Virus record (IMG/VR): IMGVR_UViG_2671181019_000011
Length of the DNA stretch: 4,179 nucleotides
From: a virus
Lineage: Duplodnaviria > Heunggongvirae > Uroviricota > Caudoviricetes
Reading direction: 5' to 3' (one strand)
A program made the position numbers and the translations under genes. How positions within the stretch are numbered: position 1 is the first letter of the stretch; every line of letters starts with the position of its first letter. This document shows, in pieces, positions 1 to 3,211 of this stretch. The notes below the pieces were generated by a model, which saw only the letters and a list, made by a program, of their open reading frames with translations, ran no database searches and had not been told where the DNA came from.

Positions 1-1242
1 ATGGCGAGAAAAACACACCCATTAACCACAGTGCAGATCAAAGCAGCCAGACCAGCGCAAAAGGAGTACACCCTGCAGGACGGCGGAGGGCTTTTTCTCC
101 TGGTCAAACCGTCTGGATCAAAACTCTGGAGATTTTCCTACTACCGACCATCGGACAAAAAAAGAATATTGCTGAGTTTTGGATCGCTTGAAGATGTTTC
201 CCTGGCTGATGCCAGAAAACGCCGTAGCGAGTACAGGACGTTAATCAGTGCCGGAACTGACCCGCAGGACCACGAGAGGCAAAAAAGAGAGACAGAGGCC
301 CGAAGACAAGGGAACACGTTCGAAAATGTGGCGGCGGCATGGTACCAGGTGAAAATCAGCCAGAATCTGGCCCCCAACACGATTAAAGACATCTGGCGTT
401 CGCTGGATAAATATGTATTCCCGTTCATCGGCAACACGCCAATAGATACCCTCACCGCCCGAAGGTTCGTTGAAGTGCTTACCCCCATCAAGGAGCGCGG
501 CAACCTGGAAACACTCAAGCGGGTTTTACAGCGCGTTAATGAGGTAATGGATTACGCCGCCAACAGTGGGCTGATTGATGCCAATCCGGCTATGAATGTG
601 CGTAAGGCGTTTCCCTCACCTGTAAAAAAACATATGCCAACAATCCGCCCCGAACAGCTGCCGGAGCTTATGCAGGCTTTATCAGTATCGGCAACAGAAC
701 GGCAGACCAGATTACTGATTGAATGGCAGTTACTGACCGTAACCCGTCCCGCCGAAGCGTCATCAACGCGGTGGGATGAAATCAACCTGGACGCGAAGCA
801 ATGGACGATACCTGCCGGACGTATGAAGATGCGCAGGGATCACGTTATCCCGCTTTCCGGTCAGGCTATGGCGGTGCTGGAGGCCATGAAACCAATCAGC
901 CACCACCGCAATTACGTTTTCCCAAGTCTGAAAGACCCACAGCAGCCGATGAACAGCCAGACAGCTAACGCAGCATTGCGGCGTATGGGATTCGCTGGCG
1001 TGCTGGTGTCTCATGGATTACGCGCCATATTCAGCACAGCAGCGAACGAGGAAGGATTCGAGCCGGACGTAATAGAGGCGGCACTTGCCCACGTCGACAC
1101 CAACGAAGTTAGACGGGCATACAACCGGAGCAACTACATAGAAAAACGCATCGTGCTGATGCGCTGGTGGGGCGAATTTGTCGAGGCTGCGGCGACGGGC
1201 GTAACCCTCGCCAGTGGTAAAAGGGGTATCCGAGCCGTGTAG
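1..1242 (+). CDS. int: Tyrosine-type site-specific recombinase, P4-family integrase (413 aa)
   Basis: ATG at 1, TAG at 1240-1242. N-terminal arm-binding-type region (LQDGGGLFLLVKPSGSKLWRFSYY) and C-terminal catalytic signatures: TVTRPAEA (Arg), HGLRAIFST (H-x-x-R), LAHVDTNEVRRAYNRSNY (Tyr nucleophile), LMRWWGEF tail typical of P4-like integrases. Confidence 0.95.
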   Translation: MARKTHPLTTVQIKAARPAQKEYTLQDGGGLFLLVKPSGSKLWRFSYYRPSDKKRILLSFGSLEDVSLADARKRRSEYRTLISAGTDPQDHERQKRETEARRQGNTFENVAAAWYQVKISQNLAPNTIKDIWRSLDKYVFPFIGNTPIDTLTARRFVEVLTPIKERGNLETLKRVLQRVNEVMDYAANSGLIDANPAMNVRKAFPSPVKKHMPTIRPEQLPELMQALSVSATERQTRLLIEWQLLTVTRPAEASSTRWDEINLDAKQWTIPAGRMKMRRDHVIPLSGQAMAVLEAMKPISHHRNYVFPSLKDPQQPMNSQTANAALRRMGFAGVLVSHGLRAIFSTAANEEGFEPDVIEAALAHVDTNEVRRAYNRSNYIEKRIVLMRWWGEFVEAAATGVTLASGKRGIRAV

Positions 1243-1738: not shown

Positions 1739-1945
1739 ATGGAAGCAATCAGAAAAATTATCTTTCGCCAGGAAGTAAAAAAAATTATCCACATCAAGGC
1801 AGACAGCACGCTGCAAAGCATGATCAACGCCGGAGAATTTCCGCAGGGTTTTCGCGCTGGTTTACGCCGTCGCGGATGGTATGAGGATGATGTGTTGGCC
1901 TGGCAGAAAGAACGCGAACAGGAAGCACGCGGAACGGCTGCTTAA
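1739..1945 (+). CDS. AlpA-family / excisionase-like HTH regulatory protein (68 aa)
   Basis: ATG 1739 with AAGGT 8 nt upstream; TAA 1943-1945. Size and sequence pattern (IIFRQEV...STLQSMINAGEFPQGFRAGLRRRGWYEDDVLAWQ) match the AlpA/Vis/Xis-type small HTH proteins found next to P4-like integrases. Family-level recognition only. Confidence 0.7.
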   Translation: MEAIRKIIFRQEVKKIIHIKADSTLQSMINAGEFPQGFRAGLRRRGWYEDDVLAWQKEREQEARGTAA

Positions 1946-1970: not shown

Positions 1971-1998
1971 GAAAAAAGCGGCCCCGATATGGAGCCGC
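1971..1998 (-). terminator. Possible intrinsic terminator for the convergent minus-strand genes (weakly bidirectional)
   Basis: GC stem GCGGC(cc) / (gg)aGCCGC at 1978-1998. On the minus strand it is followed by TTTTTT (complement of A6 at 1972-1977); on the plus strand by CTTTCT. Confidence 0.35.
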
Positions 1999-2093
1999 CT
2001 TTCTGAACAATTAACCCGCTGCGCCTTATGTGTATGTGATCCCAAACATAAGCACGGGGATGATAGCCGCTATCAGGCTGGTGGGCAATGCAA

Positions 2094-2282
2094 TCAGTCT
2101 GGTTCAGTTCGTTGCCATACCTGCAATGAGCGCTTTTCCCTATACTCTTTAAGGAATTGCTCAAGGGCAAAAGCACATGGTGCGAATCTTTCTGATTCAT
2201 GCTCTATCTTTCTGCGCCGTCTTTTCCGTGCCGGTGATAATGTTTTGGTCAATTCTTTATCGGTCATTGTGTTGTCCTGCAT
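2094..2282 (-). CDS. Hypothetical small basic protein (62 aa; 57 aa if started at the second ATG, 2267)
   Basis: Minus-strand ORF downstream of the RHH gene and in the same frame. Contains RKRRRRK. AGGA lies 7 nt upstream of the second ATG. Codon usage resembles the RHH gene. No family recognised. Confidence 0.4.
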   Translation of the reverse strand: MQDNTMTDKELTKTLSPARKRRRRKIEHESERFAPCAFALEQFLKEYREKRSLQVWQRTEPD

Positions 2283-2324: not shown

Positions 2325-2516
2325 TTATCCTTTGGGTTCTATGCCGCGCCGCTTTAGTTCAGTGCGCCCCAACTCTTTAAGCCAGTTGGCTAGGCTTATG
2401 CCGTCGCTCTGTGCTTCTTTGTCGAATTGCTCTTTTAGCTCTGGAGAAATTCGCATTCTGAATTGTGGGGATTGCCCGTCCCCTTTAGGGCTTTTATCGC
2501 GTTTGATTGTTGACAA
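2325..2516 (-). CDS. Ribbon-helix-helix (Arc/CopG/Mnt-like) DNA-binding protein (63 aa, TTG start)
   Basis: QFRMRISPELKEQFDKEAQSDGISLANWLKELG matches the RHH beta-strand plus two-helix pattern (compare Arc QFNLRWPREVLDLVRKVAEENGRSVNSEIYQRV). TTG start at 2516 preceded by AGGTGA with 4-nt spacing; TAA at 2325-2327. Confidence 0.65.
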   Translation of the reverse strand: MSTIKRDKSPKGDGQSPQFRMRISPELKEQFDKEAQSDGISLANWLKELGRTELKRRGIEPKG

Positions 2517-2560
2517 GTGGTCACCTATTGAATTAGCCTTTCCATTGTTAGGTGGTCACC
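2510..2560. promoter_or_regulatory. Divergent promoter/operator region between the RHH gene and the Icd-like operon
   Basis: TTGACA at 2510-2515 (plus strand) with TAGCCT 18 bp downstream (2534-2539). Two copies of GTGGTCACC (2517-2525 and 2552-2560, each containing a GGTNACC palindrome); the first overlaps the RHH gene's own SD and start. Confidence 0.4.
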
Positions 2561-2577
2561 TTAACACAAGAGCACTT

Positions 2578-2650: not shown

Positions 2651-3211
2651 ATGGTTGCCGTAAATCATATACCACACCTTGTACACACACAAACGGCCTT
2701 TGTGTGGCGTTTTCTGGCCCTGAATATCGGAGAAAAAAACCAGTTGATCGCCAGTGTCGAAAATAGCTATGATTCCCGCGCACCTCATAAAACGGGTGCC
2801 GGGATTGGCGTCCTGGGCAAAACTGAAGCGCATAACACGCGCCCCGCGTGTTTTTTTGTGCCGCATAGTCACACCTTATCAATGGTGGGCTGTACGGGGG
2901 CGGAGCAATCCGCGCCGGTTTCTTCAGTGTCCGGTTACGCCAACCCTGCACAGTCCGCCACCAGCGAAATTGGCGTTTCCGGTGGCGGTTATCTTAACCA
3001 CACTGAGGAGGCTGCCAACATGGCTACTATCCCTACCCTTGTACATTCTCAAACCGCCTTTCTCTGGCGCTTTATCATCTTTGGCGCGTCAGAACATCAA
3101 ATCATCCACGTAACCGCCTGGACGGAACGCGAAGCGCGTAGCCGTTGCCCGTCCGGTTGTGTTGCTGTATTCGCCGCCCGTATTCGTCAGGAGGTGTGCC
3201 ATGTGCAATAA
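2651..3211 (+). CDS. Tandem Icd-like (host cell division inhibitor Icd-like) ORF: two Icd-like modules in one frame (186 aa as sequenced); the first module may be frameshifted
   Basis: AGGAG at 2641-2645, ATG 2651, TAA 3209-3211. N-terminal motif IPHLVHTQTAFVWRF repeats as IPTLVHSQTAFLWRF at residue 124. The modules are joined by a Gly/Ser/Ala-rich low-complexity stretch that coincides with GC-rich RNA hairpins. Icd-like assignment is from remembered family motifs, not a search. Confidence 0.45.
   Translation: MVAVNHIPHLVHTQTAFVWRFLALNIGEKNQLIASVENSYDSRAPHKTGAGIGVLGKTEAHNTRPACFFVPHSHTLSMVGCTGAEQSAPVSSVSGYANPAQSATSEIGVSGGGYLNHTEEAANMATIPTLVHSQTAFLWRFIIFGASEHQIIHVTAWTEREARSRCPSGCVAVFAARIRQEVCHVQ
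2897..3011 (+). promoter_or_regulatory. Structured RNA region upstream of the second Icd-like start: two hairpins plus anti-SD pairing (candidate C4/CI-like antisense RNA or translational control element)
   Basis: Hairpin 1: 2898-2904 / 2909-2916 with GCAA tetraloop. Hairpin 2: CCGCCACC 2955-2962 / GGTGGCGG 2981-2988. Long-range pairing 2921-2930 (UCUUCAGUGU) with 3000-3009 (ACACUGAGGA) sequesters part of the SD (AGGAGG 3006-3011). Confidence 0.3.
3020..3211 (+). CDS. Icd-like protein, second module, expressed from an internal start (63 aa)
   Basis: Strong SD AGGAGG at 3006-3011 with 8-nt spacing to ATG 3020. Product MATIPTLVHSQTAFLWRF...TEREARSRCPSGCVAVFAARIRQEVCHVQ has the size and motifs of a small Icd-like protein. 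Confidence 0.55.
   Translation: MATIPTLVHSQTAFLWRFIIFGASEHQIIHVTAWTEREARSRCPSGCVAVFAARIRQEVCHVQ

Follow-up and report, generated by a model that had tools for sequence, protein, structure and literature searches.

Two conserved palindromes as probable operators of an Arc-like ribbon-helix-helix repressor on overlapping promoters of a Gram-negative phage-inducible chromosomal island

In phage P1 the immI promoter is under the C1 repressor, and in P4 the promoter PLE is constitutive with RNA-mediated termination. In phage P22, Arc, a small ribbon-helix-helix (RHH) protein, represses the overlapping promoters Pant and Pmnt from one operator (PMC2724298). For phage-inducible chromosomal islands (PICIs), Tommasini et al. 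described C4/isrK immunity RNAs in 'Bro zones', and the RHH regulator considered here is not mentioned (PMC10111431). We analysed a stretch of 4179 bp (IMG/VR virus record IMGVR_UViG_2671181019_000011, hereafter the window), which is E. coli DNA matching the left portion of an island of about 9-10 kb, and within it two identical 9-mers beside a gene for an RHH protein, which a preliminary description made from the sequence had proposed as operators. With a probability that we put at roughly 0.8, these 9-mers are the pair of sites bound by a small Arc-like repressor, which would act on overlapping promoters and keep the early/replication operon off.

The exact 9-mer GTGGTCACC is found at 2517-2525 and at 2552-2560, with a start-to-start distance of 35 bp, just as the preliminary description had stated, and there is no further copy in the window, even when one mismatch is allowed. 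The same description had placed the first repeat at the Shine-Dalgarno sequence and start codon of the RHH gene, beside a TTGACA hexamer, and our coordinates agree: the Shine-Dalgarno sequence (2527-2523) overlaps repeat 1, the TTG start codon occupies 2516-2514 and TTGACA lies at 2510-2515. It had also pointed out a GGTNACC palindrome in each 9-mer, and here we depart from it, as the conserved symmetry is that of an even 12-bp palindrome of the AGGT-N4-ACCT type, reading A(A/G)GTG-GT-CACCT in the window (2515-2526 and 2550-2561). GGTNACC was dropped as the symmetry element and is regarded as incidental, because equivalent sites in related loci, such as GTGACCACC (L002 and L011), do not contain it, whereas AGGT-N4-ACCT holds everywhere. 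The features on which the argument turns are:

2515-2526, no strand: candidate operator O1, AAGTGGTCACCT; it includes the first 9-mer, lies between the -35 and -10 hexamers of P_R (about -31 to -20 relative to the predicted start), abuts the RHH start codon and covers its Shine-Dalgarno sequence
2550-2561, no strand: candidate operator O2, AGGTGGTCACCT; it includes the second 9-mer, spans about +5 to +16 relative to the P_R start and overlaps both the -10 element and the start site of P_L
2510-2515, plus strand: putative P_R -35 hexamer TTGACA, overlapping the RHH start codon of the other strand and invariant in 29 of 29 loci
2534-2539, plus strand: putative P_R -10 hexamer TAGCCT, after an 18-bp spacer, with a predicted start at about 2546
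2558-2566, minus strand: candidate P_L extended -10 element TGtTAAGGT, with a predicted start at about 2551
2325-2516, minus strand: gene of the putative RHH (Arc-like) repressor, 63 aa, TTG start at 2516-2514, with the beta-strand P17-Q18-F19-R20-M21-R22-I23
2523-2527, minus strand: Shine-Dalgarno sequence AGGTG of the RHH gene, 5 nt before the TTG and formed by the right arm of O1

Within the window the 9-mer has no statistical significance, as two or more matches with at most one mismatch arose in 30 of 200 shuffles, and shuffle statistics for the 12-mer pattern in the locus spanning the complete island were not significant either. Besides this one, three direct repeats of 9 nt or longer have their copies within 60 bp of each other in the window. 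In a 22-kb stretch comprising the closest complete island and its chromosomal flanks, the pattern AGGTGNNCACCT (at most one mismatch) matched only twice, at the two operators. Since window shuffles were uninformative, we relied on comparative tests.

With positions 2320-2585 as query, a DNA search detected the module, between about 69% and 100% identical, in 217 of 5426 complete E. coli genomes, many of them O157:H7. From E. coli, seven diverged copies were sampled, and a protein-guided scan with one genome per species added 13 more loci (Erwinia, Xenorhabdus, Pantoea, Citrobacter, Buttiauxella, Yersinia, Providencia, Pectobacterium and an unclassified Enterobacteriaceae isolate); the set was completed with loci of Aeromonas, Morganella and Lelliottia, a metagenome assembly at ENA and a Pasteurella multocida element whose deposited name is phage Pmp8. 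The preliminary description had suggested conservation of the motif in homologous elements as a check, and in 29 loci we observed the same layout with class-specific sites: TTGACA, site 1, a TAnnnT -10 hexamer, site 2 and TGnTAnnnT on the minus strand. The end of TTGACA overlaps the regulator start codon (ATG, GTG or TTG; where the window has TTG, other loci have ATG or GTG at the homologous position), about 24-26 nt containing the TAnnnT hexamer separate site 1 from site 2, and site 2 is usually followed by TTAACA, a hairpin and then CTAACCA(A/C)C. In the Pasteurella element (phage Pmp8, L029; OR544139.1, 2340-2700) the sites GGTATATACC and GGTAATTACC lie 31 bp apart in the same promoter/operator layout. 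The Pmp8 record itself, 15 kb long and deposited as a phage, has a PICI-like gene order (primase, small open reading frames (ORFs), RHH gene, AlpA-like excisionase).

The sites of the homologues are 12-bp AGGT-N4-ACCT palindromes with an even dyad, and site 2 is often a perfect 12-bp palindrome (AGGTGTACACCT, AGGTGGCCACCT or AGGTACGTACCT). Their spacing is 35 bp, or 33 bp or 31 bp in some classes. The N4 core is common to both sites of each locus, in direct or inverted orientation, and falls into nine classes between loci. The 8-bp core of site 1 is repeated exactly at the locus's own site-2 position in 18 of the 25 distinct loci; mean mismatches are 0.52 within the own locus vs 2.67 against loci of other protein classes, and when site-2 regions were permuted among eight class representatives, a total as low as the observed one occurred about once in 10,000 (p ~1e-4). 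Within a class, across genera, the sites are 95-100% conserved, the DNA between them 80-85% and the proteins about 83% identical. Judged from this conservation and from the concerted change in related loci, the repeats are beyond chance.

The classes are defined by residues 18 and 20 of the RHH beta-strand, within the motif P-x-F-x-x-R-I, and pair with the N4 cores as follows:

PQFRMRI (QR, the window): GGTC, GACC or GGCC
PQFK(M/V)RI (QK): GGCC
PPFHMRI (PH): GTAC
PTFQ(I/V)RI (TQ): ACGT
PAFQ(V/I)RI (AQ): GTGT/ACAC
PMFNVR(I/L) (MN): ATAG/CTAT
PVFPLRI (VP): ATAT/GCAT
PPFQIRI (PQ): AATT/AAAC
PQYQMRL (QQ, Pasteurella): ATAT/AATT

Across these nine classes, residues 18 and 20 co-vary with the N4 core of both sites. 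Three predictions of the core were recorded from the protein motif before the DNA was retrieved, and all three made in this blind way, from protein sequence alone, were right: PAFQIRI was expected with GTGTGTAC/GTACACAC, PMFNVRL with GTATAGAC/CTATAC and PTFQVRI with GTACGTAC, and each proved correct. The class-defining residues 18 and 20 align to Gln9 and Asn11 of Arc, and the invariant Arg22 to Arg13. In Arc, Q9, N11 and R13 are the three base-contacting residues, and since Q18, R20 and R22 of the window protein align to them, the class residues occupy predicted DNA-contact positions. The invariant Arg22 would fit the invariant outer GT/AC, and the variable residues 18 and 20 the variable centre. 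The proposal that residues 18 and 20 mainly set the specificity for the central N4 belongs to the explanation to which the joint figure of about 0.8 refers. As natural data on DNA reading by RHH proteins, these matched strand residues and operator cores are unusually clean, and they are of use for the engineering of orthogonal small repressors.

Structure prediction places the protein in the RHH fold. A PDB profile search with 15 homologues gave P22 Arc as the best match (residues 11-58, full-length alignment, weak E of 0.042), at a sequence identity of about 25%. The AlphaFold2 model (106 homologues, monomer) has a mean pLDDT (predicted local distance difference test) of 83.7, and in it residues 17-24 are extended while 25-37 and 42-56 form helices; in a Foldseek search with this model, PDB matches 1-8 were all Arc (template modelling score to target 0.72-0.90), followed by CopG, AmrZ, NikA and RHH antitoxins. 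By the model, the fold is RHH and Arc the nearest relative. The match to Pfam HicB (PF05534, RHH part) reaches 20.4 bits vs a cut-off of 21 (E 4.9e-4), and NCBIfam gives a weak match to TraJ. The palindromic form of the sites agrees with a symmetric dimer: one dimer per palindrome, as in MetJ on the met box, would fit, and two dimers per palindrome may also be accommodated, as for Arc and CopG (PMC2724298).

The protein family has 629 members (protein clusters), in PICI-like contexts (AlpA, primase, DUF4222), and most of these homologues, 63-64 aa long and consisting of the RHH part only, are named 'toxin-antitoxin system HicB family antitoxin'. We rejected this identity, as the 63-aa protein is RHH only, has no HicB N-terminal domain (RNase H-like fold) and has no HicA neighbour; no HicA-like gene was found adjacent to it in the window or in the at least 20 loci inspected. 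The name looks like an over-extension of the model of the HicB C-terminal RHH part. A second annotation problem concerns the other strand. RefSeq, through the Prokaryotic Genome Annotation Pipeline (PGAP), annotates a 221-aa 'hypothetical protein' (WP_001329530.1) on the plus strand at 1960-2625 (10641-11306 of L028), spanning the RHH gene, operators and promoters, and the TTG-started RHH gene is omitted from the PGAP annotation in genomes that carry WP_001329530.1. In nearly all loci an antisense frame stays open, which is a shadow frame that shares the wobble positions; the 221-aa ORF was rejected as a real gene and judged such a shadow ORF (synonymous fraction 0.50 vs 0.63 for the RHH frame), and Pfam found nothing in fragments of the plus-strand ORF. 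Its annotation is, by these comparisons, probably a mis-annotation. Annotation often passes over the gene for a 221-aa antisense ORF, and the name given to it is that of a HicB antitoxin.

The promoter motifs keep their positions across the loci. In a position-anchored search TAnnnT stands 17-18 bp after TTGACA in 23 of 26 loci despite sequence variation, and in 24 of 26 TGnTAnnnT occupies a fixed position, over the right arm of site 2. The P_L motif is kept where the operator arm differs, in L026 (TGATATTGT) and in Pasteurella (TGTTATGGT), and for this reason the extended -10 element is not merely another reading of the operator. TGnTAnnnT is thus likely the promoter of the RHH gene, with a predicted mRNA leader of 35 nt, and autoregulation is plausible; the arrangement of the Shine-Dalgarno sequence in an operator arm is also present in homologues. 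Other leftward -35/-10 combinations (TTGTGT, GTGACC/GCTAAT and TAACAA) were discarded as not conserved. The preliminary description had aimed the TTGACA promoter at an Icd-like operon; the direction stands, but the content is wider, namely an early/replication operon with C4/isrK RNAs and not merely Icd. It had also spoken of a divergent region, which is right in that the two promoters are opposed, but they interdigitate rather than lie simply back to back.

Downstream of O2 a hairpin follows:

2576-2621, no strand: conserved hairpin (2587-2621) with a preceding A-run on the plus strand, just outside the exchangeable cassette described below

On the minus strand it reads, in a terminator scan, as an intrinsic-terminator-like structure just upstream of P_L; on the plus strand it would stand in the leader, at about +40 of P_R and ahead of CTAACCA(A/C)C (region 2576-2631). 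The hairpin is present in 22 of 22 homologues folded individually, from E. coli to Pasteurella, with differing stem sequences, and RNAalifold on a MAFFT alignment of the leaders gave no consensus structure, the stems being misaligned. A second small hairpin (2633-2653) encloses the Shine-Dalgarno sequence of the first ORF of the operon (AACG-taaactaggagc-CGTT ATG), and homologues have an analogous CGATA...TATCG or GTTAT...ATAAC stem around theirs; this hairpin may be a translational control element.

We were able to delimit the module by comparison with a related island, L001, in which it has been replaced:

2323-2584, no strand: exchangeable regulatory cassette with the regulator gene, both operators and both promoters, swapped in L001

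The flanks of L001 are about 98% identical to the window on both sides, with an identical integrase (WP_000101718.1) and a near-identical AlpA. In place of 2323-2584, L001 (14323-14633) carries a 59-aa YlcI/YnfO-family gene and three copies of GTGGCTGACA, two of which straddle a TTGACG-17-TAATAT promoter. This alternative regulator reads as beta-alpha-alpha and has no Pfam match. As exactly 2323-2584 is swapped, the regulator gene, sites and promoters form one exchangeable cassette; by this comparison it is exchanged between islands like a phage immunity region, and L001 would represent an alternative 'immunity type' in the same slot. In addition, the AlpA allele WP_000737990.1 occurs with QR-type GTGACCACC/GTGGCCACC sites in L002 and with PH-type GTGTACACC sites in L005. 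As identical or near-identical proteins accompany different site sets, AlpA and the integrase can, on this comparison, be excluded as the binders.

We propose the following mechanism. The 63-aa RHH protein would bind the two AGGT-N4-ACCT operators, presumably as dimers inserting a two-stranded beta-sheet into the major groove. Occupancy of O1, between the -35 and -10 hexamers of P_R, would exclude RNA polymerase, and with P_R blocked the early operon would remain silent (C4/isrK immunity RNAs, Icd-like genes, replication genes). On O2 the protein would cover the extended -10 element of P_L, giving negative autoregulation, and possibly also block promoter escape from P_R. With predicted starts at about 2546 (plus strand) and 2551 (minus strand), the core promoters would interdigitate, and therefore only one polymerase could be bound at a time; shut-off of P_R may free P_L, in the way that Mnt acts at Pant/Pmnt of P22, and may favour it when repressor is scarce. 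What we infer from sequence comprises binding, stoichiometry, repression, autoregulation, start sites, de-repression by a helper phage and the possible toxicity of the operon, which the preliminary description had raised. The idea of an RHH-controlled, autoregulated operator switch, already put forward in the preliminary description, gains support here from protein-site covariation, the three correct blind predictions and the placement of the promoter motifs.

A number of observations weigh against this proposal. The 35-bp spacing corresponds to about 3.3 helical turns, atypical for cooperative RHH binding to adjacent sites, and one site is lost in two loci (L016 and L020). The covariation is among related sequences, so that the classes are not fully independent events. 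A generic sigma-70 consensus scan of the window called neither P_R nor P_L, and both promoters are weak by consensus (TAGCCT in P_R, no -35 in P_L). The statistical similarity to Arc is weak (E 0.042). Finally, the published model of Gram-negative PICIs is one of activation by AlpA, with the global repressor called unclear (PMC6092414).

Three other explanations were weighed against the same evidence. A repeat devoid of any binding function, duplicated by chance or imposed by promoter and Shine-Dalgarno constraints, might be argued from the shuffles and the other short direct repeats reported above, and from the double duty of AGGTG as Shine-Dalgarno sequence and of TAAGGT as -10 element; yet such constraints cannot explain the matching central N4, and position, symmetry and pairing are kept across two orders and several bacterial families, with concerted class-specific changes, in loci whose protein identities of 57-90% oppose their being recent copies of one another. 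This explanation is effectively refuted by the comparative data and is scarcely credible. It is unlikely, although the least so of the three, that the RHH protein binds the sites but only autoregulates the leftward unit, in the manner of an antitoxin, or acts as an activator. The NCBI name of most members and the weak Pfam HicB match point in that direction, O2 overlaps the candidate P_L, and the small genes that come after the RHH gene in the same orientation vary; the protein, however, is 63 aa long without the HicB N-terminal domain or, in the loci inspected, an adjacent HicA-like gene, and O1, between an invariant TTGACA and a positionally conserved -10 hexamer, occupies the position of a repressor and not that of an activator.

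The sites might also be genuine but belong to another factor (AlpA, an integrase/excisionase, replication initiator iterons, or a host or helper-phage protein), with the RHH gene associated through linkage. Sites and gene are co-inherited and linkage alone gives some association, and the 20-nt tandem repeats upstream of alpA (1633-1672) point to sites of other regulators nearby. Linkage, however, leaves unexplained that the two sites stay identical within a locus and change between classes; the protein differences lie at Arc-equivalent DNA-contact positions and the motif predicted the core in three of three cases, identical AlpA or Int alleles accompany different site classes, and a host factor would have no need for nine specificities. 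We consider binding by another factor very improbable. Repression by the RHH protein from both operators is the explanation that we retain.

The operon that P_R is predicted to drive begins with:

2651-3211, plus strand: start of the putative P_R-driven operon
2651-2872, plus strand: Icd-like/'ash' ORF
2780-2856: isrK/seqA-like RNA (Rfam, 66 bits; gathering score 50)
2878-2965: C4/CI-like antisense RNA (Rfam C4, 73.8 bits; gathering score 45)
3020-3211, plus strand: Icd-like gene (NCBIfam phage_ICD_like, E 1.4e-15)

The C4 and isrK elements lie within or beside the 'ash'/Icd-like ORF, and the arrangement expected of C4 antisense-RNA immunity, a C4 RNA with target elements upstream of icd/ant-like genes, is present; an Rfam c4-a1b1 match at 2767-2819 is weak (21.2 bits, under threshold). 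In most homologous loci (L002-L007) the C4/isrK segment is absent and the leader runs directly to the Icd-like gene. The N-terminus of the operon's first ORF, MVAVNHIPHLVHTQTAFVWRF, resembles that of the Icd-like protein, MATIPTLVHSQTAFLWRF (2651-2720 vs 3020-3090), and by this likeness there are two Icd-like starts in tandem. In L007 a partial Icd-like gene is annotated downstream of alpA (699-932).

On the other side of the cassette, the window contains:

1-1242, plus strand: integrase gene
1739-1945, plus strand: gene of an AlpA-like helix-turn-helix (HTH) protein
1972-2004, minus strand: intrinsic-terminator-like site with a 14-bp stem and a T6 run
2094-2282, minus strand: possible 62-aa ORF from the ORF list, on the same strand as the RHH gene and 3' of it

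The short leftward unit, made up of the RHH gene and possibly the 62-aa ORF (no Pfam or NCBIfam match), sits between alpA and the early operon and is probably ended by the terminator-like site at 1972-2004. The zone 3' of the RHH gene on the same strand varies, with the 62-aa ORF in the window and a SWIM zinc-finger protein or hypothetical proteins of 115-160 aa in L002-L008, which suggests cargo co-expressed with the repressor in the quiescent state; in some loci this variable zone also has DUF2971 and BRO-N genes, encoded not on the RHH strand but on that of alpA. Ahead of the alpA-like gene, which starts at 1739, we noticed the tandem 20-nt repeats AAAAACGGTGTATACCGTTT and AAAAACGGTGGGAACTGTTT at 1633-1672 and, just 5' of the gene, a 9-nt inverted repeat TGATTTACC/GGTAAATCA within 1687-1736; the repeats upstream of alpA are candidate sites of a regulator (AlpA?) at P_alpA.

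The island is integrated beside tRNA-Pro, with yejM on one side and yejO on the other, and past the end of the window it carries DUF4222, a RepA-type helicase, a small terminase subunit and a capsid gene. L001 and L028 share the order tRNA-Pro, int, AlpA-like HTH, Icd-like, DUF4222, RepA helicase, terminase small subunit and major capsid protein, and both have the hallmarks of a PICI (about 10 kb, attachment site, co-oriented int and alpA, replication module, packaging/capsid genes). Judged by gene order, the island is a Gram-negative PICI.

An Arc-like repressor with palindromic operators on overlapping promoters is a known kind of switch that is apparently undescribed for Gram-negative PICIs: in the literature on RHH or Arc-like regulators in PICIs, Icd-like satellites and EcCICFT073, we found no description, in a searchable library that is incomplete. 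The module offers a concrete, testable repressor/operator/promoter map for a widespread subgroup (217 of 5426 E. coli genomes; 629 protein clusters), whose islands carry an exchangeable, phage-like immunity cassette. More tentatively, and with less than even odds in our estimation, the RHH protein might fill the vacant place of master repressor in a large subset of Gram-negative PICIs, for which AlpA is the only known regulator, as a functional counterpart of Stl, with its at least nine classes serving as immunity/incompatibility types and embodying a readable beta-sheet code. If so, the classes would let several islands coexist in one cell, and residues 18 and 20 would constitute a natural recognition code for the N4 at the centre of AGGT-N4-ACCT. 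De-repression could proceed via a helper-encoded anti-repressor, or via AlpA-driven rightward transcription running antisense through the RHH unit.

Among the described systems, MetJ and CopG share with the island protein a short palindromic box, a symmetric beta-sheet and the reading of bases by alternate strand residues, but they use tandem adjacent boxes with dimer-dimer cooperativity, whereas the island sites are isolated, 35 bp apart, and imply no corepressor. Stl (Rpr) of the Staphylococcus aureus pathogenicity islands (SaPIs) and other Gram-positive PICIs is likewise a divergent regulator where the integration side meets the replication operon, and the RHH protein is a candidate keeper of quiescence in the same place (PMC6092414); Stl proteins, however, are larger HTH proteins of unrelated fold, and induction of Gram-negative PICIs is reported to go through AlpA, an activator. 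With P1/P7 immI and P4 immunity, the locus has in common an operon with a C4-family RNA, an isrK/seqA-like element and Icd-like genes; it differs in that an RHH protein with its own operators would act on the island promoter, and in that many homologous loci do without C4/isrK. The closest likeness in regulatory design is with Arc/Mnt of P22 immI: a small RHH repressor with an N-terminal arm and a P-Q-F-x-x-R strand (PQFNLRW in Arc), an operator inside the promoter of an anti-immunity/early operon, and an opposed, overlapping promoter that serves the regulator gene. Where Arc has one 21-bp operator bound by adjacent dimers, the island has two 12-bp palindromes 35 bp apart; its regulator is transcribed away from the operon like Mnt while being Arc-like in size, and the setting is a satellite island and not a phage, in a family that displays many natural specificity classes.

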